This document shows, one piece after another, positions 8,887 to 48,281 of a stretch of 64,000 bases of DNA. Positions within the stretch are counted from its first letter, which is position 1; each line of letters starts with the position of its first letter. Made by a program: the position numbers and the translations under genes. The stretch comes from a virus. The stretch is taken from IMG/VR virus record IMGVR_UViG_3300032313_001035. One strand, 5' to 3'. Under the pieces are notes generated by a model. The model did not search any database. It saw nothing but the letters and a program-made list of their open reading frames with translations, and had not been told where the DNA came from.

Positions 8887-9108
8887 ATGAAAAAAAATAC
8901 AATACTTAAAAAACTGGATAATTACGAAGAGCGTATGGTCAAAATTATTGACGAAATACAAGACTTTTTGGATTCGATTGAGGACTCTGATGTATCTATC
9001 ATGGCAGAAGATTTTTGCCAAGGTTTACTTGACTATGTGCAAGAGAATGATATATGTAATCTAAATGACATCAGAGAATTCATCGAAAACGATTATGAGA
9101 CCGAGTAA
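8887..9108 (+). CDS. small acidic hypothetical protein
   Basis: ORF fills the gap between co-oriented genes. Confidence 0.5.
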   Translation: MKKNTILKKLDNYEERMVKIIDEIQDFLDSIEDSDVSIMAEDFCQGLLDYVQENDICNLNDIREFIENDYETE

Positions 9109-9976
9109 TAATATTTTAATTTTGGGTAATGGGTATGTTGGTGGGTATTTATACCAACATCTTTTGAACAACAATTATAAAATCGATATAAAATCGAGAA
9201 AAGAATTGGATTACCATGATTCTGTAACGTTGCGCAAATACATATTGAATAATGATATTAATTGTATTATTAATTGCTCTGGATTCACTGGTAGACCAAA
9301 TGTTGATCAGGCAGAATTAGAGAAACAGGAATGTTGGAAGCTAAATGTTGAGATACCTTTGAAAACTAACCAATTGTGTGATATCTTAGATATCAATTAT
9401 TTGCACATTTCGACGGGCTGTTTATATGATGGCTATGATAAAGACTGGTCTGAAGAAGACACTCCCAATTTTGGTTTATTTCAAAATTATAGCTCGTTTT
9501 ATTCTAAATCCAAACATGCGTTCGAGAACTTATCGAAAAATCTCAGAGGAATGATTTTGAGAATACGAATGCCTTTCGGTTTAGATATCTCGCATCGAAA
9601 CTATCTCACCAAAATTAAATCCTACCCACAACTTTTAAATTTGGTCAATTCTAAGACATATATACCAGATTTATGCAAATTTGTGGAGAAATTACTGGGG
9701 GATGCATATACACCATGGATTGGTAGAGAGATATACAATTTGGTTAATCCACATCCATTAAAGACTGAATCAGTGTGCGCTATTCTGGAAGAATACGGTA
9801 TGCACAATTCGAATTGGAGTTACGTCGATAGATCGGCGTTGAAAGCATACGCAAACCGTTCTAATTGCGTGTTGGATTCTACAAAGTCGAGAGATATACA
9901 CGAGTTTCAACCCGAAGAACTCGCGATTAGAGAACATTGTCAATATATAATTAATTCTTCTAAAAAAAATGATTAA
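9095..9976 (+). CDS. dTDP-4-dehydrorhamnose reductase-like SDR, NRS/ER (3,5-epimerase/4-reductase) type
   Basis: GNGYVG Rossmann motif, GFTGRPNVD, STGCLY, EEDTPNF, SFYSKSK (YxxxK), LRIRMP. Confidence 0.8.
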   Translation: MRPSNNILILGNGYVGGYLYQHLLNNNYKIDIKSRKELDYHDSVTLRKYILNNDINCIINCSGFTGRPNVDQAELEKQECWKLNVEIPLKTNQLCDILDINYLHISTGCLYDGYDKDWSEEDTPNFGLFQNYSSFYSKSKHAFENLSKNLRGMILRIRMPFGLDISHRNYLTKIKSYPQLLNLVNSKTYIPDLCKFVEKLLGDAYTPWIGREIYNLVNPHPLKTESVCAILEEYGMHNSNWSYVDRSALKAYANRSNCVLDSTKSRDIHEFQPEELAIREHCQYIINSSKKND

Positions 9977-10712
9977 GAAAGCAATATGTTTAGCTGGAGG
10001 TAAGGGAACTCGCCTCCATCCGTTGACGAAAACAACTAGTAAGCAATTACTACCTTTATATAATAAACCTGTAATTGCGTTTCCTCTACAAACTCTTAAA
10101 AGTATGGGTTACGATGATATTCTTATCATCACTGCTGACGAGGCACAAATGTTATCATTTAAAGGACTTTTAGGTGATGGTAGTAAGTTTGGATTAAAAT
10201 TATCTTATGTGATTCAAGGTGAGCCGAGAGGTTTAGCTGATGCTTTTATTGTTGGTGAAGACCACATCAAAAATGCTGATGAAATTTGTATGATTTTGGG
10301 CGATAATATTATTATCGATAGCAATCCAATAAATGCTACTCCAAATACTATCTTCACATACAAAGTTAAAAATCCAGAGGCATACGGCGTTGTCACAATT
10401 GACGACAATGGGGGTATAGATGAAATTATAGAGAAGCCCCAAGAATATGTGTCTGATGACGCTGTTATCGGTTTGTATATTTTTAAAAATAATGTGGTGG
10501 ATCTCGCTAAACAATTGAAACCATCCAAAAGGGGAGAAATAGAAATCGTAGATTTGATTAAATTGATCAATCAAGAAGAACGAGTTAAAATACAGAGATT
10601 AGATGGTTTCTGGTTCGATGTTGGCGATTTCGATTCTCTTTTAGATTGTGCAAATCTCGTAAGGACTATTGACAAACGATCAAACCATGATATTGGTTTG
10701 GTAGGCATATGA
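9969..10712 (+). CDS. rmlA: glucose-1-phosphate thymidylyltransferase
   Basis: LAGGKGTRLHPLT...SKQLLPLYNKP, QGEPRGLADAF, LGDN, EKP, PSKRGEIEI, WFDVG. Confidence 0.92.
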   Translation: MIKKAICLAGGKGTRLHPLTKTTSKQLLPLYNKPVIAFPLQTLKSMGYDDILIITADEAQMLSFKGLLGDGSKFGLKLSYVIQGEPRGLADAFIVGEDHIKNADEICMILGDNIIIDSNPINATPNTIFTYKVKNPEAYGVVTIDDNGGIDEIIEKPQEYVSDDAVIGLYIFKNNVVDLAKQLKPSKRGEIEIVDLIKLINQEERVKIQRLDGFWFDVGDFDSLLDCANLVRTIDKRSNHDIGLVGI

Positions 10713-23162: not shown

Positions 23163-23212
23163 ACGAATATTTAAGCTTGACAAAAGAAAAAACAATAGTA
23201 AGTTAGTTGTAT

Positions 23213-24181
23213 ATGGTTGATTTGTCCAATAAAAAAGTTCTTGTTACTGGTGGTTGTGGCTTCATTGGAAGCAACTTCATTGAAATGATTTTGAATAAAT
23301 ATTACAATTTATCAGTGTATAACATAGATAAAATGGGTATCGGGTCGAGAAGTCTCCAAGATATTCAATATAATCATCTTAATCGTTATGTTGAATATCG
23401 AAAAGATCTCAAAGACATTAGCACTGTTTTCCATGCTGAAAATATGGTTGATTTTGATTATATATTTCATTTTGCAGCAGAATCTCATGTTGATCGTAGC
23501 ATATCAGGACCGAAGTTGTTCATTGATAACAATATCATGGGAATGGTCGAACTACTTGAATGGGCTAGACAGCATCAAAAAAATGTAAAAATTATTAATA
23601 TTAGCACTGATGAAGTTTATGGACATTTGGTCAATATCGATGATCCTTCTTTTAATGAGTCAACGCCTTTTGCTCCTAGAAGTCCATATTCAGCATCCAA
23701 AGCATCTGCTGATATGATAGCGGCATCATACACCACAACATATGGTATGGATATTATTACCACACATTGCTGTAATAATTTCGGTGCTCATCAAGCTGAT
23801 GAAAAACTTATACCTACGGTTATAAAATGTTTAATACAAAATCGAGCTATACCAGTTTATGGCAATGGTCAGAATATTCGTGAATGGATTCACGTAGATG
23901 ATCACAATAAATCCATTTTGGAGATTGCCGAATTGGTAACACCTCACCGAAGATTCAATATTGGTTCAAATTTAGAAATAAATAACCTTGACATTATTGA
24001 AGTTATATCTAAGATATTGAAAGTGACACCCACTATCAATTTCGTGGAAGACCGAAAGGGTCACGATTTTCGTTATTCAATAGAATCTATCAATTATGAT
24101 AGAAAATTTAAACTAATGGATTATGAAGAAGCAATAAAAAACACAGTAGAGTTCTATAAAAATAAATACACGCTTAAATAA
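23213..24181 (+). CDS. rmlB: dTDP-glucose 4,6-dehydratase
   Basis: TGGCGFIGSN, HFAAESHVDRSI, STDEVYG, PYSASKA, EKLIP, IREWIHVDD, DRKGHDFRY. Confidence 0.95.
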   Translation: MVDLSNKKVLVTGGCGFIGSNFIEMILNKYYNLSVYNIDKMGIGSRSLQDIQYNHLNRYVEYRKDLKDISTVFHAENMVDFDYIFHFAAESHVDRSISGPKLFIDNNIMGMVELLEWARQHQKNVKIINISTDEVYGHLVNIDDPSFNESTPFAPRSPYSASKASADMIAASYTTTYGMDIITTHCCNNFGAHQADEKLIPTVIKCLIQNRAIPVYGNGQNIREWIHVDDHNKSILEIAELVTPHRRFNIGSNLEINNLDIIEVISKILKVTPTINFVEDRKGHDFRYSIESINYDRKFKLMDYEEAIKNTVEFYKNKYTLK

Positions 24182-30320: not shown

Positions 30321-30827
30321 ATGAGTGTATATTTTCTGGGTGATCCGCATCTGGGTCACAAAGCAATCGGACGTTATCGTCCATGGGTTAAAGATAGTGC
30401 GGCGAACACTGCGCTTATTCATAAACTATGGCGTGACACGATTAAAAAGAGTGACATCGTATATGTCATGGGCGATGCAGCATTCTCTGATGATGAACTC
30501 ATCGCAATGGGCAATCTGCGGGGTCGTAAGATTCTCATCAAAGGCAATCACGATGACTTTGTAAGCACTTCGCTACAGACTCAGGTGTTCGAAGAAATTC
30601 ACGGCATCATCAAGTATAAAGCTATGTGGCTAAGTCATGCACCGATCCACCCTGCGGAGCTCCGTGGCAAAAAGAATGTGCATGGACACACGCATATGAA
30701 AAGCGTTCGTACTTGGTATGGAACTCTTGACAAGCGTTACTATAATACTTGTGTCGATGTGGTTTACCCGAAGACTGGCAATATATTTGTGAATCTTGAA
30801 ACGGTTAAAAGTTATTTTGGATTATGA
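30321..30827 (+). CDS. metallophosphoesterase
   Basis: GDPHLGH, MGD, KGNHD, SHAPIHP, HGHTH. Confidence 0.9.
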   Translation: MSVYFLGDPHLGHKAIGRYRPWVKDSAANTALIHKLWRDTIKKSDIVYVMGDAAFSDDELIAMGNLRGRKILIKGNHDDFVSTSLQTQVFEEIHGIIKYKAMWLSHAPIHPAELRGKKNVHGHTHMKSVRTWYGTLDKRYYNTCVDVVYPKTGNIFVNLETVKSYFGL

Positions 30828-31036
30828 ATATTGGAGAGGAAATGAAAGATACAGTCTATCAATCACTTTGGTATTCAGTTCATAAATTAGTTCGTGATGC
30901 AGTTTGGAGCTCGGTTCATAATAGAATTAGCGGTTCATTTTTACAATGCGGTCGGTTGACATTTAACGACTCTGAATTTAGTTCAGTCCGAGATACAATA
31001 AAAGAATACAAATACCAATCGTATGATTTTAAATGA
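30824..31036 (+). CDS. SV-repeat mini-protein family member
   Basis: MNIGEE start, VWSSV, 4-residue periodicity, ends IKEY. Confidence 0.65.
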   Translation: MNIGEEMKDTVYQSLWYSVHKLVRDAVWSSVHNRISGSFLQCGRLTFNDSEFSSVRDTIKEYKYQSYDFK

Positions 31037-31558: not shown

Positions 31559-32422
31559 TTATTCCAGATATTTGAATGTGTAACCTTTGCAAGTTTTTGT
31601 CCTACCTGATAATTGATGTGAAATTTGTGCGGGATCACAATCAGTTTGATATCCCGCTTCTTTTATAGAATTGAATATTTTCCCATCGGATCTTATGATT
31701 TTTTTTCCATTTTTTCCAATTCTTGACAATGACATATTTTTGACATGAGACTCTGAAAATTTCATTCCAATTCTCCCCTTTGATATATTTTCTCGAATTT
31801 GATTTGATCTTTTTTGTCCCAGTAATGGATTTGGTTTGTTTTTTGTAATAAATCTCAATTTCAATTCATTTAAATCAAAATCTTTTAAATAAAACCAAAA
31901 TTTGTTATGTAAATTACTATAATTATGTTTAACTATTTTTTTCATTGTTACACACCCAAGAAATTGTGGTCCTATATGTGGATATTTTTTAGAAACCTCT
32001 GCAACATAATCAAAGTATTCAACCTCTCCCGTGATTATATCATAAGATACAATAGGTTTTCTATTTGGACATTGTTTTCCTTTATTATGCGGCACGATAC
32101 CATACATTCCATTCATTTCTCCTACAGGACATGGCGTAGCGTGTTCTCTGCCATTGTAGCCTTTGTTGTACGAGTTGTGATAGTTTATCCAATATTGTTC
32201 TCGTTCTGCAAGCATTTCTTGATTGATATTTTGTTCAAGTATGATAAATTCAAAAGATTCTTCTCCGTATTTGTCCCACGCTCTTTGGAGTTTCCTAGAG
32301 TGGTGTTCTTTTTTATTTAAACGTCTGATGTGCTCTGATTTTCTTTTGTGGAAAGTTCTGCCAGTAGCTCCAATGTAAAATTTTTTGTTGACATTACACT
32401 TCATCCCATATACTATGTTCAT
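31559..32422 (-). mobile_element. free-standing GIY-YIG homing endonuclease with NUMOD repeats
   Basis: IVYG...FYIG, RKSEH, KLQRAWDKYG, REQYWI, GYN; NUMOD-like tail; minus-strand TAAATA upstream. Confidence 0.9.
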
Positions 32423-32500
32423 ACACTTATATTTAACTTTGAATTCAAAAAATATTTTAATTACCTGCTTTTTATAAAAACTAAACACAATTATTGAACA

Positions 32501-32983
32501 ATGAACATTTTTGCAACTTCCAATGACCCTTTTCAAGCCGCAATGTGGCTGTGTGACAAACACATGAAGCAATTATTAGAAAGCTGTCAAATGCTTTGCA
32601 CAGCATTTCATGAGCAAGGCATTACCGCCCCTTATAAACCATCGCATCGTAATCACCCCAGTTCTATTTGGACACGTGCAAGCTATGACAATTTTCAATG
32701 GCTTATTGCACACGCTCACGGTATCTCAGAAGAATACACTGCTCGTTATGGTAAAACACATAAATCTAAAGCAGTTTTAGACTGGTGTGAGGACAACGCT
32801 CATAAACTTGGATTCGACACTATCGATCTTACTAAGTTTGCTATTGCAATCGCAGAAAACATGTTGTGTCGCAAGCATCCAGACTTCACCGAGAGTGACC
32901 CTGTTAACGCATACAGACTTTACTACAAATTAGACAAACAACATCTCCATGCTTGGAAACGAAACAGACCAGACTGGTTATGA
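32501..32983 (+). CDS. pyrimidine-dimer DNA glycosylase-like protein (DenV-related)
   Basis: MNIF...CDKH...LESCQML, YKPSHRNHPSSIW, EYTARYGKTHKS, AYRLYY. Confidence 0.75.
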   Translation: MNIFATSNDPFQAAMWLCDKHMKQLLESCQMLCTAFHEQGITAPYKPSHRNHPSSIWTRASYDNFQWLIAHAHGISEEYTARYGKTHKSKAVLDWCEDNAHKLGFDTIDLTKFAIAIAENMLCRKHPDFTESDPVNAYRLYYKLDKQHLHAWKRNRPDWL

Positions 32984-40170: not shown

Positions 40171-40318
40171 TGAGTTGTGGGAGGATGTAATACAGCTACA
40201 ATTAAATGATGATATAGACGATATTGTACATGATAATGTTAGAAGACGGTCATTATTAAGCCACATTGCTGGGAACATAGGTTGGGAATTATTTGAAAGA
40301 GGACAAAATGAAAGATAA
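40103..40318 (+). CDS. hypothetical mini-protein, possible diverged SV-family member
   Basis: 4-residue hydrophobic periodicity LRDELWEDV...IDDIVHDNV. Confidence 0.45.
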
Positions 40319-41414
40319 TAAAAATAATATGAAAAAAGCTATTATAACAGGCATCACAGGTCAAGATGGATCTTATCTCGCTGAACTATTACTTGAGAAA
40401 GGTTATATTGTTCATGGAATTAAAAGACGTTCATCTTCCTTTAACACACAACGACTCGATAAATTCTTCGAACATCCTAACCTCCACCTGCACTATGGCG
40501 ATCTAACTGATTCGAGTAATCTAATAAAGTTGATTGCTGAAATTGAACCAGATGAAGTATACAACTTAGGAGCACAATCTCATGTAGCTGTATCATTTGA
40601 TTTACCAGAATATACTGCTGATGTTAATGCATTAGGTACACTGAGATTGCTCGAAGCGATTCGTTTTCTCAAACTTGAGAATAAAACTCGCTTCTATCAG
40701 GCATCGACATCTGAACTATTCGGCTCATCTGAACCACCCCAATCAGAACTAACACCATTCCATCCTCGATCTCCGTATGCAGTATCTAAGCTCTATGCGT
40801 ACTGGATTGTTAAGAACTATAGAGAAGCATATGGAATGTTTGCGTGTAATGGTATATTGTTCAATCACGAATCACCTCGTAGAGGAGAGACATTTGTAAC
40901 ACGAAAGATTACTCGTGGTATTGCAGAGATCTCTCTTGGTGTTAAGAGCGAGCTACGACTCGGTAATCTTGATGCTAAACGCGATTGGGGTCACGCAAAG
41001 GATTATGTATATATGCAATGGTTGATGCTTCAGCAAGATCATGCTGAAGACTTTGTCATTGCGACGAACAAACAAATCTCTGTTCGTGAATTTGTTCGCA
41101 TGTCTGCACGTGAGGCAGGTATGGAACTGGAATTTCATGGCGATGGGATTGAGGAGACTGGGATTGTCAAATCCATACTTGATGATCAGAAAGCCCCAGC
41201 AGTTAATGTAGGGGACGTTGTTATAAGAGTCGATGCTCGTTATTTCCGACCAGCAGAAGTGGAAACACTCTTAGGCGATCCTTCTAAGGCAAAAGAAAAA
41301 CTTGGGTGGTCTCCTGAAATTACTGTGGAGCAAATGTGTGCGGAAATGGTTGCTTCCGATCTTGCAGAATTACGCCGACATACCCTCCTTCAAAATTATG
41401 AGCATCGAAAATGA
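40308..41414 (+). CDS. gmd: GDP-mannose 4,6-dehydratase
   Basis: [67 protein letters not shown]. Confidence 0.97.
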
Positions 41415-42938
41415 AATCACTGGATCATTCATCTTAAATGATTTGTTATATGCAATGAGTGGAGCTTGTCTTGACCGTTTGTCTGCTAAGAGTTACCCTG
41501 ATAATCTTCACACTGATGTATGGTATGCAGTCGACTGGCAAGTGAGAAGTGCAATCCAAAATGAGATGAGAGAATATGAGCACAGCATCAAATAATATAT
41601 TTATTCCAAGTTCTTTGCCAGATGAGGCATGGACAATTAAAGATATTATAAGTGAGCAGTTCGAATTTGATCTTATATTTGATATCTGCGATGCTCTTAA
41701 ACTTGATGACAATGGGGATATTTTCTGGATTCTGAGGGGAGAGGTCTTTTATAACAAATCGATTATAACAAAATAAATATGAAAGAAATTCCCAAACATA
41801 TACCAATCTATAGCACCGTTTGCGATCTTGAATTTAACGCAATTCATGGTAGTATTCGTAAACATGTTAGAGATAGCATTCATCACGAAACACGCTATGA
41901 TATAGATGATAAGTTGGATTGGATTGTCTCTGATGCCATATTCGTCTCTGTGAGTAATAATGTAAATGGGACACTACAAGATTATGAATTTAAGAAATGA
42001 ATTGGTTATAAACCAGATAATAAGGAACAATATGGCGAGTATGAAGGAATCTATTGCCGCATCCCTCCGCGAAATCACTATGAATAACATCTGTGTAGCA
42101 GTGGGATATGGATCAGTCAATGGCGATGTTGTCAATGCGTGTGTTACGATCAACACCAATATACGCGAGGAAGTAAAAGAGTATGGGTATAGTAAATGAA
42201 ATAGATGACTCAGTTAATGGCTCAGTTAGTGACTCAGTTTATGACTCAGTTCATGACTCAGTTCGTAACTCTGTTCGTTACTCAGTTATTGACTTAGCTT
42301 ATGGTACAGTTTGTGGCTCAGTTCATAGCTCAGTTCGCAACTCAGTTCATAACAATGTAGAGAGTGAAATAGAAGGGTATGAATATTAAAAAGAAAATAG
42401 TTGACTCAGTTAATGACTCAGTTGGTTTCTCAGTCTGTATCTCAGTTAATAGATCAGTTTATAAGTCAGTTTGGGTCTCAGTTTGGAGCTCAGTTAGAGA
42501 CTCAGCTTGGGACTCAGTTAATAACTCAGTTCATAGCTCAGTTCGTATTAGTGTATCGAGAGAGATAAAAGAGCATGGATATAGTAAATGAAATAGATGA
42601 CTCAGTTAGTGACTCAGTTTGTGACACAGTTATTGACTTAGTTTATGGTACAGTTAGTGGCTCAGTTTGGGGCTCAGTTCGGGACTCAGTTTGGGGCTCA
42701 GTTCGTATTAGTGTATCGAGAGGGATAAAAGAGCATGAATATCGGAAGTGAAATAAATGAAGATGTGTATAATCTTGTGTGGGAGAATATATGGCGAGAA
42801 TGCAGAAAACCAATCATAGATCAAATGTCATCACTCGCACAGGTCAACACATATGATTCATTGGGATCGGTAATCGATGATACACTAAGAGGCAATATCA
42901 GTATAGAAGTTGTTATTAAAATGAGGGATAAAATATGA
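41398..42938 (+). other. array of 8 coupled mini-genes (41398, 41576, 41779, 41984, 42183, 42379, 42575, 42735)
   Basis: 58-73 aa ORFs, mostly overlapping through (E/D)(Y/H)E / M(N/S/D/G)I junctions; 42575..42751 read by eye. Confidence 0.75.
42209..42703 (+). repeat. 12-nt coding repeat CTCAGTT-N5 (x-x-S-V)
   Basis: about 30 units across three ORFs. Confidence 0.92.
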
Positions 42939-42978
42939 ATATTAATATAACTGTTAAAAACCACTTTATGATTAAGCC

Positions 42979-43530
42979 ATGAAACTTTTTTGGGACATAG
43001 ACGAAACACTCATCCACACAAAGATGAATCCATTCAAGCCAGAATGGAATTGCGAACTCCTTGTATTGGATGATTTTGTTCACTATACCCGCATCAGACC
43101 ATGCGCTCGCGAATTAATCGAATACAGTAGAACTCTTTTCGGTGGCGAAAATGTCTATATCTTGACGGCAGCAACTCATCAGTATGCTAGAGAAATCAGT
43201 CGTGTGGCTAATTGGGGATTTACTTCGGAGCAAATCTTTGCGCGGGAAAATGTGGAGCAATACACGCACCGATCATCAGGTGGTTGGGGCGCAGAACGTG
43301 TGCAAGTTACTGCACATCCTCTTGCTCATCCCGACAATATCTTGATTGACAATCTGCCCCCAGAGTGGAATGAAGAAAAAACGTCTTTTATGTTGATTAA
43401 TCCCAAGACCAACTACTTGAAAGTTAAGGATTACTTGGGCGACAATACCGATGAAGATATTTTTCGCGATAAGGTAAAACACTTTTTGAAAGAAAAAGCG
43501 AAAAATAATTTGACAAACTGTGAGAAATAG
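42979..43530 (+). CDS. HAD-superfamily (FCP1/NIF-like) phosphatase
   Basis: WDIDETLIH, IRP, ILTAA, ILIDN. Confidence 0.8.
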   Translation: MKLFWDIDETLIHTKMNPFKPEWNCELLVLDDFVHYTRIRPCARELIEYSRTLFGGENVYILTAATHQYAREISRVANWGFTSEQIFARENVEQYTHRSSGGWGAERVQVTAHPLAHPDNILIDNLPPEWNEEKTSFMLINPKTNYLKVKDYLGDNTDEDIFRDKVKHFLKEKAKNNLTNCEK

Positions 43531-44113
43531 TTTACTAAACTGTTTGGAAGATGGGGTGGAAATGCATATCCTTTCAATAGAAATATGGCAAAACGAAAAG
43601 GTATAAAATCAAAATTCCCAGAAATAATTTCATATTGGGAAACCAAAATATACGAAGGTGATATCGGGGTCGATTGGTGTGATGCTGATGAAAGATGTTG
43701 GAGATGTGGTTATAAAGCCAGATTAGAAAAATGCCACATCATACCACACTCTTTAGGTGGTGTGGATGAGGTTTCAAACTTAGTATTATTGTGTAATAGA
43801 TGCCATAAAGAAGCACCGAATTCAACCGACAAAGAATGCATGTGGGAATGGATTAAAGCTACCAAGGTAGCATTCTATGATATATTTTGGGCTCAACATG
43901 GACTGGAAGAATATGAAAAAATTTACAACACAAAAATCATCAATGATTTGAAAAATGTTGATTTGACAGATTCTAAAAAAATTAGAATGGTAGTTAGACG
44001 ATCTTTTGAAAATGTGTCTGTTCATTATGGGACAGGGAATTATAACACATCAACAGTTGCCTCAATAATAAAAAATATCACAAAAAACTTGACAAACTGT
44101 GAGAGATAGTTTA
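43510..44113 (+). repeat. 25-bp direct repeats flanking the HNH gene
   Basis: TTGACAAACTGTGAGA(A/G)ATAGTTTA at 43510-43534 and 44089-44113. Confidence 0.9.
43585..44109 (+). CDS. HNH endonuclease
   Basis: CWRCG...KCHIIPHSLGG...NLVLLCNRCH. Confidence 0.9.
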   Translation: MAKRKGIKSKFPEIISYWETKIYEGDIGVDWCDADERCWRCGYKARLEKCHIIPHSLGGVDEVSNLVLLCNRCHKEAPNSTDKECMWEWIKATKVAFYDIFWAQHGLEEYEKIYNTKIINDLKNVDLTDSKKIRMVVRRSFENVSVHYGTGNYNTSTVASIIKNITKNLTNCER

Positions 44114-44124
44114 TATTTCTCGTG

Positions 44125-44230
44125 TTGCCACATTCCAGCCTCCGCAATGAGGGCATTCAAAACGTAACGTGCATTAAGTCTACCTCTCCGTAATGAATGA
44201 GCGACCTGATCGGGGGTTGGAATGTGGTAA
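44125..44230 (+). ncRNA. about 106-nt structured RNA closed by a 20-bp stem
   Basis: TTGCCACATTCCAGCCTCCG pairs with CGGGGGTTGGAATGTGGTAA (G-U pairs); begins at +1 of TTGACA-N17-TATATT. Confidence 0.7.
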
Positions 44231-44277
44231 AAACTACATTATAATACAAGTATGCCAGAAAAAAAAATCACAAAACA

Positions 44278-44844
44278 ATGAAAACATATACAATAAAACT
44301 ACACGGTTACTGCACTGAAGCAAGAATCTATGAACTTGATCAAGATGCCGCTGAATATTGGAATAATCTTCTAATAGTTGGCGAAGACGAAAGTCTTTAT
44401 GAATATCTTGAGGGAGAAGCGACTGATCATTCACCAGAAGCTGACTTTTTGAATGGCGAGGATCAATTCGATGCATCGAGTCTATATGCCACAACTACAT
44501 ACATCGATACCGCCCAAGCTAGAATCAATGTTCAACATGGCGACGAAGAAGTTCTTAACATGGTATTGAATGAGGATGATGTTAATATCGAATGGGTCGA
44601 TGGTGATGAAATGCCAAGTCCAGCACTGCTGGTATCTGATTATTCAAAAGGGGTATTTTTCCAAACAGATTTGGAGCTTGATGATGAAAAAACATTTGAC
44701 AAATCCAAACTTAAAGTTATTCTAAGCGAGGAAGATGAAGGTGAGGCATTCATAGGAGTTTCTTATGATGGTGTTGAACTGGAATTAGACGATTTCTTCT
44801 TGACAGGAAAAGGAAGAACATACACAATTACGAATCTTGACTAA
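44278..44844 (+). CDS. highly acidic hypothetical protein
   Basis: Asp/Glu-rich ORF; first long gene of the operon. Confidence 0.7.
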   Translation: MKTYTIKLHGYCTEARIYELDQDAAEYWNNLLIVGEDESLYEYLEGEATDHSPEADFLNGEDQFDASSLYATTTYIDTAQARINVQHGDEEVLNMVLNEDDVNIEWVDGDEMPSPALLVSDYSKGVFFQTDLELDDEKTFDKSKLKVILSEEDEGEAFIGVSYDGVELELDDFFLTGKGRTYTITNLD

Positions 44845-44850
44845 CCAAAT

Positions 44851-45873
44851 ATGGAAAACAAAGAAACAAAAGATATGACAGAAAAAGTGGAAACTGCTAT
44901 GAAACAAAAAATCGACAAGCTCACACCTGAGCAGGAAGCGAAGATGCCTGAGTATGTCCAGAAATGGATTAACATTGGTATTAACACTGATCGTCTTGAT
45001 CCAGTTCGCACACGAAAAACGATTGATCAGTATCGTGCGTTGATCAATAGACCAGTAGATGTGCCATTGATTATCCTTAATAACCCTCTTGAAGCATGGG
45101 CTGCATGTCATCTCATTACCAACTTTGGTGTTAAGATCGAAGATCTCGATGCAGAGCTTGATGATGTATTCAATGGTAATCCTAAGAAGTATGATATTCC
45201 CCCTGCACAACTTCCATGGCAGTCTGGCTCATTCTTCGCTGCGACCTTTAGCTTCTATGACTTTATGTTTGAAGAAGTAGGTGTGGAGATTGATGCCGAA
45301 CTCTATGCTAAGTATAAGACATGGGAAGCAACTTCACAAATCGGTTGCATCTACCCTATGGAAGAGTATACCATTGTAAGTGAAAAGCCTACAGAGATTC
45401 ATCTCAATGCGGAGAATCGTCTGCATCGTAATGGTGGTGCTGCTCTAACTTATGCTGGTCGTGGTAATCTTAAAGTGTATTCTCTCAATGGTGTTCGTGT
45501 GCCAGAATATATTGCTGTTACGGATGAAGAGAAGCTCGATCTTGATTATTACAAGACTATTGCAAACGCTGACGTTAAAGCAGAATTTGTGAGGAAGGCG
45601 GGGATTGAACGCTTTAAGTCTCTTGGCAAACTTCTCGACACATATGAAAACTATATTGGTGCTGAGTATGAATGGTGGCATAAGAGTCAGTATGAACTCT
45701 GGGATATGGAAGCTATCTTTGATGGCTTGAGCAGTGCGCCATATCTCTCTATGGTCAATCAAACTACAGGTATCTTCCACTTCGAAGGTGTATCACCTGA
45801 TTGCCAAGACCTCAAGAGTGCAATCAAACAGCGTCTCGGTGGACGCGATATGGTTATCAAAGAAATTAAATAA
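44851..45873 (+). CDS. DUF6745-like protein lacking the internal tetrapeptide repeat
   Basis: LTPEQEAKMPEYVQKWINIG; FYDF; IVSEKPTEIH...RLHRNGGAAL.Y...VYSLNGVRVP; NADVK. Confidence 0.7.
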   Translation: MENKETKDMTEKVETAMKQKIDKLTPEQEAKMPEYVQKWINIGINTDRLDPVRTRKTIDQYRALINRPVDVPLIILNNPLEAWAACHLITNFGVKIEDLDAELDDVFNGNPKKYDIPPAQLPWQSGSFFAATFSFYDFMFEEVGVEIDAELYAKYKTWEATSQIGCIYPMEEYTIVSEKPTEIHLNAENRLHRNGGAALTYAGRGNLKVYSLNGVRVPEYIAVTDEEKLDLDYYKTIANADVKAEFVRKAGIERFKSLGKLLDTYENYIGAEYEWWHKSQYELWDMEAIFDGLSSAPYLSMVNQTTGIFHFEGVSPDCQDLKSAIKQRLGGRDMVIKEIK

Positions 45874-45905
45874 ATAAAACAATCAACAACGAAAGAAACA
45901 ACAAT

Positions 45906-46241
45906 ATGAACAAAACAACAGTAATCCTACATGGCGAAGCTATGCTATTCCCAGCCGAACTGCCAGCAGACGCAGTTGAAATTAAGCCTACTAACAACGA
46001 TCTGCATATTATTGCAGATAGTGAAACAACTGGCAATCACCATGTCGTTGATATGGTTGAAGGCACTAAAGTGTTTCGCTCTGGTGATCGCACATTCATT
46101 CGCAACTCTAAACCTACTCAGGTGCGTTGTGTGCATGCCAATCGTCACGATGCTATCGCTATGCCTCCTGGTGTGTGGCAAGTAGATGTACAGCAGGAAT
46201 TTGATCATTTTGCACAAAACATGCGAGCAGTTCGTGATTGA
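45906..46241 (+). CDS. His-rich partner protein typical of DUF6745 loci
   Basis: HGE, SETTGNHHV, H..RH..I.MPPG.W.V..QQEFD...RAVRD. Confidence 0.7.
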   Translation: MNKTTVILHGEAMLFPAELPADAVEIKPTNNDLHIIADSETTGNHHVVDMVEGTKVFRSGDRTFIRNSKPTQVRCVHANRHDAIAMPPGVWQVDVQQEFDHFAQNMRAVRD

Positions 46242-46256
46242 TAAACCTATAGAATC

Positions 46257-46296
46257 AAAGCGAGGAGTTTGTATTCTTATAAGCTCCTCGCTTTTT
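46257..46296 (+). terminator. hairpin/terminator between the DUF6745 operon and the second mini-gene array
   Basis: AAAGCGAGGAGTTT/AAGCTCCTCGCTTT followed by TT. Confidence 0.75.
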
Positions 46297-46301
46297 GTTG
46301 T

Positions 46302-47132
46302 ATGAATATTAAAGAGGAAATAGATGTCTCAGTTAGAGACTCAGTTGATAACTCAGTTAGGATCTCAGTTATTGACTCAGTTTATGGCTCAGTTGATAAC
46401 TTGGTTAATGGCTCGGTTAATGTCTTAGTTAGGAGCTCAGTTAATAACTCGGTTTATCAATCAGTTTGGAGCTCAATTAGAGACTCAGTTAGTAACACTG
46501 TTAGTATTGCGATAAACGATTATGAATATTGAACAGCATATTTATGATACAGTTTGGTTATCTAATCAATCCATACATCTCAGTCTTGAGATGCATACTC
46601 GTGTTGTAACTTCTCCTCTCTTATTTGACGCTGTACACAAAAAAATTAATGTGTTAGTATGGAGCGCTGTATCATCAGAAGTATATAGGAACGTTCGGGA
46701 GTGCATAGAAGAATATGAATATTGATAAGGAAATAGATCGCTCAGTTTGTGACTCAGTTAATGACTCAGTTATGAACTCAACTAGGAAATCGGTTCGGTT
46801 CTCAGTTAAGGACTCAGTTTGGAGCTCAGTTTTTGGTTCAGTTCGCCGCTCAGTTTGTGACTCAGTTAGCATTGCGATAAACGATTATGAATATGACAAA
46901 GCAATCAGTTGAATATTGTGTTTGGAATAATGGTTGGCGTGACATTGATTTTTTGCGCATTGCATTAAGGGCAAATGCTGAAAATCATGTTGATGAAGAA
47001 CCTTTGTATAAAATACAGATTAGTGTGCCACGAAATATTATTAATACAATTGGTGGTAATGTTCCATTTGCTGGCGGTTTTGAATTAAAGTCAACTCTTA
47101 ACACAGAGCTAAGAGAGCGTAAATATAAATAA
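46302..47132 (+). other. second array of 4 coupled mini-genes (46302, 46522, 46715, 46887)
   Basis: MNI starts overlapping YEY ends; CTCAGTT-N5 repeats in 46302 and 46715. Confidence 0.8.
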
Positions 47133-48179: not shown

Positions 48180-48281
48180 AAGTGTGTGGTGTAGTGGTAG
48201 CACAACCCAAGCAAAGGGCTTCTTGTCCGATAGGATAGGTGGTATTTCATCGAGGTGCAGGTTCGATTCCTGCCACACTTA
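48180..48281 (+). ncRNA. tRNA-like RNA with extra arms (GCA in an atypical loop)
   Basis: AAGTGTG/CACACTT acceptor, normal D arm and GGTTCGATTCC T arm, about 35-nt structured insert. Confidence 0.65.

Follow-up and report, generated by a model that had tools for sequence, protein, structure and literature searches.

Why would a coding repeat hold its silent bases constant while the amino acids that it encodes change from unit to unit? The question is raised by a 12-base repeat in the virus record IMGVR_UViG_3300032313_001035 of IMG/VR, of which we analyzed one stretch of 64,000 nucleotides (nt; hereafter the window). The unit, NNN-NNC-TCA-GTT, encodes x-x-Ser-Val (x1-x2-S-V), and 62 units are present in five small + strand genes, which we term mini-genes g1 to g5. 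An earlier note on this DNA had reported a repeat region, 42183-46912, with a fixed CTCAGTT core. The core is indeed conspicuous: the window contains 41 copies, compared with 7.3 +/- 2.4 in shuffled sequences, and 39 of the 41 fall within the five open reading frames (ORFs) in a single register. The region, on the other hand, resolves into five separate small genes of one family. They form two array clusters with ~3.5 kb of ordinary genes in between, which encode a NIF-type phosphatase, an HNH endonuclease, a 188-aa protein, a DUF6745 protein and a 111-aa protein. The note had missed the link between the family and the DUF6745 gene. The repeat codes for the proteins of a multigene family, represented here by five well-preserved and about six decayed members. 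Overall, we consider it likely that this x-x-S-V family is shaped by exchange of units together with selection at x1/x2, that its products, as modeled, dock on the DUF6745 protein, and that they may provide a set of variants for host-phage conflict.

A family of small genes with frozen silent sites

Family members are 50-90 residues long and share a simple architecture, in which a short conserved N-terminus (MNIxxEI) is followed by the tetrapeptide array, (x1-x2-S-V)10-15 in g1-g5, and by a conserved C-terminus (I-K/x-E-Y-E-Y). Consecutive mini-genes overlap in ATGAATATTGA, where one frame is read as YEY-stop and the second as MNI. A local profile search of the window revealed six members beyond g1-g5, mostly decayed (Table 1). 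The one between g4 and g5 retains the period-4 hydrophobic pattern but has lost codon uniformity; it is 90% identical at the nucleotide level to L004:7606-7813, part of a related locus. g1 and g3 have an irregular pair of units in common, ID-L-[A/V] and YG-T-V. Searches with the mini-proteins against Pfam and PHROGs returned only sub-threshold noise.

Table 1. Mini-genes and associated features in the window. E is the value for the mini-gene family profile; array limits are those given by Tandem Repeats Finder for 12-nt arrays.
Feature	Position	Strand	Product	E	Remarks
Family member far outside the span of the arrays	30824..31036	+	70 aa	1e-13	MNIGEEM...TIKEYKYQSYDFK; relict TCA/TCG-GTT units
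Possible degenerate family member	41398..41595	+	65 aa	6e-4 (weak)	MSIENEI...MREYEHSIK
Degenerate family member	41779..42000	+	73 aa	7e-9	...QDYEFKK
Degenerate family member directly upstream of g1	41966..42199	+		8e-4 (weak)	Likely start ATG near 42032; end ...VKEYGYSK
Mini-gene g1	42183..42389	+	68 aa	8.5e-27 (hmmsearch)	13 x-x-S-V-type units; array 42205-42350; N-terminus MGIVNEI, C-terminus EIEGYEY
Mini-gene g2	42379..42591	+	70 aa	5.7e-25	13 units; array 42402-42543; start overlaps g1 stop via ATGAATATTAA
Mini-gene g3	42575..42751	+	58 aa	1.1e-19	10 units; array 42598-42703; g1 paralog
Degenerate family member overlapping g3 end	42735..42938	+	67 aa	2.5e-4 (weak)	MNIGSEI...
DUF6745 protein	44851..45873	+	340 aa		Pfam PF20530, 35.1 bits (cut-off 27), E = 1e-8; phrog_31813; AlphaFold2 pLDDT 87
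~110-aa partner of DUF6745	45906..46241	+	111 aa		Motifs HGE, ADSETTGNHH, RHDAI, VRD
Intrinsic-terminator-like hairpin	46257..46294	+			17 pairs and a T run; divides the DUF6745 pair from the g4-g5 cluster
Mini-gene g4	46302..46532	+	76 aa	1.1e-22	15 units; array 46324-46505; first gene past the terminator
Degenerate family member between g4 and g5	46522..46725	+	67 aa	2e-9	MNI...IEEYEY
Mini-gene g5	46715..46912	+	65 aa	9e-25	11 units; array 46741-46871
Gene at the end of the mini-gene cluster	46887..47132	+	81 aa		Not a repeat protein; last gene of the cluster, in the same relative place in relatives

Variation is distributed very unevenly along the unit. Over the 62 units, entropy is 1.2-1.9 bits at positions 1-5 (1.89, 1.35, 1.22, 1.43 and 1.40) and 0.2-0.8 bits at positions 6-12 (0.79, 0.51, 0.66, 0.74, 0.21, 0.28 and 0.40). 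Averaged over pairs of units, the difference is 0.62 at positions 1, 2, 4 and 5, versus 0.16 at site 9 and 0.04 at site 12, both of which are four-fold. The earlier claim that silent sites are frozen while coding sites vary is therefore borne out. The variability of the two leading residues had also been seen correctly, although it had been put at about ten identities each; we count 14 kinds of amino acid at x1 and 11 at x2. C is absent from positions 2 and 5 in all 62 units, hence no Ala, Thr, Pro or TCN-type Ser codon occurs at x1 or x2.

The freeze is most evident in codon choice. Ser is encoded by TCA in 47 of 53 cases within units, versus 20% in the other genes of the window (p = 9e-27), and Val by GTT in 54 of 58, versus 44% (p = 2e-15). 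Two-fold codons ending in a pyrimidine have T as the last base in all 33 cases at x1 and C in all 37 cases at x2. At x1, Asp is GAT (6/6) and Asn is AAT (8/8); at x2, Asp is GAC (21/21, versus 20% usage in the window) and Asn is AAC (9/9, versus 24%). Drift acting on a coding repeat cannot yield such a pattern of frozen silent and variable coding sites.

We asked whether the frozen bases are the same in related loci (L001 and others). The NNT NNC TCA GTT core of the window recurs in L001, L004 and most of L005. NNG NNC TCT GTT is found at 100% in L009 and at L005:1543, NNK NNT AGT GTT in L002, TCT GTG in L011 and TCA GTA (50/50) in L012. Across lineages it is thus the S-V peptide that is conserved and not the DNA word, while each codon choice is almost invariant within its own array. 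Decayed paralogs within the window have mixed codons. Since lineages fix different synonymous codons and decayed paralogs mix them, the codon freeze is a property of the array lineage. Such a lineage-specific freeze is what concerted evolution of units predicts.

The tetrapeptide module and DUF6745 proteins

To look for the module elsewhere, we built a profile from eight mini-proteins and searched it against 1.84 billion representative proteins. The search collected 2238 representative proteins at E <= 1e-3. A word-indexed homolog search with g4 gave no match at similar lengths, so that an exhaustive profile search was needed. Of ten matches that we checked, eight were long (370-570 aa) and consisted of an N-terminal part, an internal x-x-S-V array and a downstream C-terminal PF20530 domain; the remaining two, of 269 and 212 aa, had no Pfam family. 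PF20530 is also the precomputed assignment for most of the 120 listed homologs of the window's DUF6745 protein. The latter can be aligned with both the N- and the C-terminal part of P0121, a fused form, and has ~30 non-repeat residues at the place of the array. These results show that the window harbors a tetrapeptide module that is found inside many DUF6745 proteins, here as free-standing genes on either side of a DUF6745 gene that lacks an array.

The correspondence with the fused arrays (P0121, P0124, P0125 and P0127) extends from protein, with profile E values of 1e-33 to 1e-50, to DNA. Like the mini-genes, fused arrays have an in-frame 12-nt unit in which S-V is fixed and two residues vary, and the codons that are frozen depend on the array. 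MSCRAMM matches to P0124 were dismissed as low-complexity artefacts. There are also differences. The fused forms contain one covalent insert between the N- and C-terminal parts, whereas the window has about 11 separate, translationally overlapping mini-genes with conserved ends of their own. In addition, x1 and x2 are more diverse in the window than in the examined fused arrays, where mostly W/R/G/C/E/Q are combined with D/N/E. In P0154, P0157 and P0188, the x-x-S-V array is fused to a different short C-terminal domain (...PSFDG..WRLH.G...) without a Pfam family, and the module is therefore common to at least two protein architectures.

The ~110-aa partner gene downstream of DUF6745 provides a further link between the two forms. 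Its homology is shown, and it adjoins DUF6745 in L001, L002 and L004 as well as the fused forms in L011 and L012. In the window, the DUF6745-partner pair (44851-46241) is flanked by mini-gene clusters, and the same arrangement is seen in L001, L004, L005, L020-L025 and L030. The relatives fetched via the DUF6745 protein of the window have from 1 to 12 or more mini-genes each, mostly directly downstream of the pair. Counterparts of the 81-aa gene that closes the cluster are present at L001:8264-8494, L004:8512-8775 and L002:10012-10254.

What might the module do next to DUF6745? The AlphaFold2 (AF2) model of g4 is one helix spanning residues 3-74, with a predicted local distance difference test score (pLDDT) of 77 and, for the isolated model, a predicted template modelling score (pTM) of 0.36. 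Modeled together, DUF6745 and g4 reached a complex score of 0.87, while the best of three controls had 0.00. The mark for this score was attained by 58 of 80 solved complexes and by 2 of 110 mismatched pairs, counts that are rough because our own alignments were used. Between runs at least 36% of the contacts agreed, with partner pLDDT of at least 82. The fold of DUF6745 had no sequence relative in PDB and no Foldseek match at E <= 0.001, and the best VIA-align Z was 4.7, which does not prove that the fold is new. Because no solved relative of DUF6745 was found, the complex model cannot reproduce a memorized solution.

In the best run, contacts with DUF6745 involve Val in 15 of 15 repeats, Ser in 14, x1 in 10 and x2 in 6. 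The contacted DUF6745 residues (20-44, 79-91 and 106-139) surround the site that the array occupies in the fused relatives. The mini-protein thus probably docks on the neighboring DUF6745 protein; the complex model supports binding without demonstrating it. If S-V forms the docking stripe and x1/x2 the exposed surface, as modeled, there would be a simple reason why S-V is fixed and x1/x2 are free to differ.

Exchange of units and probable selection at x1/x2

How arrays change can be followed in the relatives. The positional ortholog of g4, L001:7447-7677, is of equal length and differs from it at 33 of 60 sites at positions 1, 2, 4 and 5, compared with 4 of 30 at positions 9 and 12. For the flanking genes of this pair, protein identity is 93-95% and 26-36% of four-fold sites differ. 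Between L024 and L025, just one of 1561 flanking bases differs, compared with 18 of 100 array bases (Fisher p = 4e-22), and one array has a 3-unit (36-nt) insertion or deletion (indel). L023 and L030 are distinguished by a 12-nt unit indel and by a cluster of four bases, which changes E-S to A-L and, silently, GTT to GTC. This cluster, at L030:1370, is part of an exact 26-nt copy of the paralogous array at L030:1108-1133, 250 nt upstream. A mosaic junction lies within the array in the comparison of L021 and L031. Of 15 recent substitutions within arrays, 10 affect positions 1, 2, 4 and 5 (p = 0.009). Shuffling of units, which the earlier note had suggested to proceed through the 7-nt core, is accordingly documented in near-identical relatives, though not in the window. 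Its other suggestion, strong diversifying selection at x1/x2, fits the rate contrasts both within units, for which we see no other explanation, and in the g4/L001 pair. We also observed a replacement hot spot just past the terminator that follows the DUF6745 pair (46268-46520 of the window). Relatives L014-L031 are 85-91% identical to the window up to 46268 and then have quite different sets of mini-genes.

A mechanism can be proposed on this basis. Arrays would change by whole-unit indels, by copying of short patches from paralogs and by recombination within arrays, as seen in the relatives. Constant exchange, primed by the shared 7-8-nt core, would homogenize the core within each array lineage, silent sites included, and this would explain why different synonymous codons are frozen in different lineages. 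Selection must be added, because exchange alone would homogenize x1/x2 as much as the silent sites; by favoring differences at x1/x2, it would make them diverge faster than neutral sites. According to the structural model, each mini-protein would be a long helix with its invariant Ser-Val stripe on DUF6745 and with x2 and part of x1 pointing outward. By analogy with a phage system discussed below, Tweety gp54, the set of mini-proteins could represent many interchangeable variants of one DUF6745 complex. The same analogy makes a use in host-phage conflict, such as counter-defence, the most likely one, with repeat content and number tuning the fit.

Several observations weigh against this reading. 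Silent changes do happen, position 12 accounting for 3 of the 15 recent substitutions. The five window arrays have 22 identical whole-unit pairs versus 14-18 expected (p = 0.05-0.18), which is not above chance; as unit sharing in the window shows no excess, the case for shuffling comes from the relatives and not from the window. Selection at x1/x2 we infer from rate contrasts and not from codon models that take recombination into account. On a canonical alpha-helix, residues spaced with a period of 4.0 do not line up in a straight stripe, and both the helix and the docking pose may therefore be artefacts of modeling. Finally, PADLOC and NCBIfam scans gave no functional hint for the tetrapeptide module, and a full-text literature search found no paper naming DUF6745.

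The alternative that survives best is that there is no selection for variation. The arrays would then be young products of slippage, with x1/x2 unconstrained in a disordered, low-complexity spacer that binds nothing in particular. Slippage does expand tandem repeats, and higher-order periods of 24, 36 and 60 nt are visible, as are recent segmental duplications (L011). Such repeats were noted in 2007 to be common in unstructured proteins (PMC2884959), and the pTM of the isolated AF2 model points in the same direction. However, x1/x2 diverge 4 to 15 times more than the four-fold sites of the same units and, in the g4 ortholog pair, exceed even the silent-site divergence of the flanking genes; unconstrained sites should not. 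The lack of C at positions 2 and 5, together with a W/R/G-D/N preference that recurs in distant arrays, indicates that variation at x1/x2 is filtered and not free. Moreover, adjacent units are never identical in the window arrays. On this evidence we regard relaxed constraint as improbable.

A second possibility is that the frozen bases are themselves the signal, either as a nucleic-acid motif (CTCAGTT as a protein-binding, modification or RNA motif every 12 nt) or through an overlapping frame (T-Q-L-x in +2 or T-E-x-x in reverse), with the x-x-S-V protein being secondary. It would account for the synonymous sites of the g4 ortholog pair, which differ at 4 of 30 versus about 32% of neutral sites in the flanking genes, and the +2 frame and one reverse frame are indeed open across several arrays. 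Yet related arrays encode S-V by other nucleotides (TCT-GTT, AGT-GTT, TCT-GTG, TCA-GTA), and with other cores the alternative-frame peptides change completely. Conserved termini, start/stop overlaps and in-frame 12- and 36-nt indels all suit the x-x-S-V frame, and the protein profile recovers the module inside DUF6745 proteins, including the alanine-rich P0127. A signal in the DNA or in a second frame is therefore very improbable. As for the frames themselves, the +2 frame (T-Q-L/F-x) is open through 42205-42297, 42401-42568 and 46324-46428, and the reverse frame (T-E-x-x) through 46675-46872 on the - strand. Both were rejected as coding candidates since their conservation is lost once the core codons change, and we regard them as by-products.

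The last alternative is a diversity-generating retroelement (DGR) or other targeted mutagenesis, in which the arrays would be rewritten from an (AAT AAC TCA GTT)n template with changes at its adenines. Variation is centered on positions 1, 2, 4 and 5 as this would require, and the NNG NNC TCT GTT sublineage (L009 and L005:1543) has no adenine outside these positions. The earlier note had remarked that many units fit a template altered only at adenines; 27 of 62 do match NNT NNC TCA GTT exactly, but the other 35 break a non-A base. It had also remarked that the A of TCA is mostly spared, and this silent A at position 9 is kept in 53 of 62 units, versus 104 of 248 (42%) at positions 1, 2, 4 and 5 (Fisher p = 3e-10). 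L012 retains the A of TCA in 50 of 50 units and that of GTA in 46 of 50. Most x1 residues of the NNG sublineage are W, R or G, which are one-step neighbors of TGG at position 1; a DGR would give a wide spread instead. Array lengths differ, and g1 and g3 retain their shared irregular units. Locus pairs L005/L006 and L002/L003, each from different samples, are identical over 13 kb. Within 3 mismatches, the window contains no tandem AATAACTCAGTT template except one di-unit inside g2. No RVT_1 was detected among the scanned window ORFs of 226 aa or more, in agreement with the note, nor in three related viral records (L005, L006 and L009), while positive controls matched. With position-9 adenines kept, non-A bases broken and neither template nor RVT_1 in the scanned set, a DGR-like mechanism is contradicted and deserves hardly any credence.

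Returning to the multigene family with unit exchange and selection, a more specific version can be envisaged. A lytic phage would maintain a cassette library of about a dozen interchangeable helical modules that dock via Ser-Val on one DUF6745 scaffold and differ in their x1/x2 surfaces. The library would be renewed by short-patch conversion and unit slippage, primed by the frozen core and the ATGAATATTGA junction, and would keep pace with a rapidly changing target in the host, for example a defence protein. We put this version forward tentatively and with considerable doubt. If true, it would parallel pilin-type antigenic variation or DGRs while relying on recombination and needing no retroelement, and would add a further phage route to protein diversity without reverse transcriptase.

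Comparison with known systems and genomic surroundings

The same codon pattern is already known, having been published in 2007 for gp54 of mycobacteriophage Tweety. The gp54 repeat has a 12-nt unit encoding a tetrapeptide of two invariant and two variable residues, with third codon positions invariant and first and second ones varying, and its authors read this codon pattern as selection for variation (PMC2884959). In a separate study, gp54 escape mutants that overcome the Phrann gp29/gp30 defence differed in repeat number (PMC9262239). gp54, the only analogue that has been studied, is accordingly a counter-defence protein that is tuned through the number of its repeats. Beyond the Tweety papers, our literature search on tetrapeptide-repeat phage proteins found nothing. 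The window shares with Tweety the 12-nt unit, the two fixed and two variable residues, and the frozen third codon positions. Repeat number differs between related phages for Tweety gp54 (with Che8 gp57 and PMC gp51), as array length and content do among relatives of the window. In contrast, the gp54 repeat is A-A-[G/W/Q]-[S/Y] inside one 374-aa protein, and the window has x-x-S-V in separate mini-genes. We detected no homology between gp54 and DUF6745: gp54 had no Pfam hit, and hhalign of the DUF6745 alignment against it gave a probability of 0.5%. The likeness to gp54 is thus one of working principle and not of family membership. Hypervariable phage proteins with tetrapeptide repeats are a known, if barely studied, kind, of which the window has a detached form divided among many genes.

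Resemblance to two other systems is more remote. With DGRs (for example, Mtd of Bordetella phage BPP-1) the window shares phage-encoded, highly localized amino-acid variation on a fixed scaffold, with AAY-like codons being common. Unlike in DGRs, variation here consists of unit indels, patch conversion and ordinary substitutions, with no adenine specificity and no reverse transcriptase or template in the scanned set. In TAL (transcription activator-like) effectors, repeats are near-identical, even in DNA, except for two adjacent specificity residues (the repeat-variable diresidues), and recombination reshuffles the repeats. TAL effector repeats are 34 aa long and read DNA bases, whereas the window unit is only 4 aa of what is modeled as a single helix, and nothing indicates binding of nucleic acid.

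DUF6745 proteins that contain tetrapeptide arrays are widespread among phages and mobile elements, as the 2238 representative clusters indicate. In the window the variable module is detached into small genes, which should make dissection easy, as scaffold and variable parts can be expressed separately and swapped. The combination of frozen silent and variable coding sites with patch conversion between paralogs also offers a clear natural case of concerted evolution with diversifying selection in a 12-nt repeat.

The window itself, with a G+C content of ~35%, derives from a large T4-like myovirus of uncultured origin. Its genes include those for a large terminase, tail sheath, rIIA/rIIB, a clamp-loader ATPase, two RNA ligases, a DNA methylase, homing endonucleases and 4-5 tRNAs. 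No cultured phage is close: identity of the large terminase to those of T4-like cyanophages is only ~36%, and neither megablast with the region nor tblastn with DUF6745 matched any of 50,697 phage records.

A GIY-YIG/NUMOD homing endonuclease gene lies at 31559-32572 (-) and an HNH endonuclease gene at 43585-44109 (+). The latter lies between the two mini-gene clusters and may have had a role in splitting them. A near-identical direct repeat of ~27 nt, TTGACAAACTGTGAGA[A/G]ATAGTTTA, is located at about 43513-43540 and 44089-44115 (+). It lies where the NIF-phosphatase and HNH genes end, and both proteins accordingly finish with NLTNCE[K/R]. The second copy is scored as a promoter (TTGACA-17-TATATT); the repeat may serve as a phage promoter or delimit a mobile HNH cassette. 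A non-coding, G+C-rich stretch at 44125-44232 (+), located between the HNH gene and the gene for the 188-aa protein, forms a long but imperfect hairpin (-45.9 kcal/mol, z = -3.2) that matched no Rfam family at the gathering score.

Further away, 48180-48281 (+) matches the Rfam tRNA family over 102 nt (45 bits, E = 2e-6) but was not reported by ARAGORN. This may represent a tRNA that has an insertion or an extended variable arm, or else a tRNA copy in decay. Genes for nucleotide-sugar metabolism are dispersed at 9065-10712, 23207-24181 and 40293-41414. They encode an RmlD-like reductase, a nucleotidyl transferase, a GDP-mannose 4,6-dehydratase-like protein and an epimerase, which suggests sugar modification of DNA or of a surface structure.

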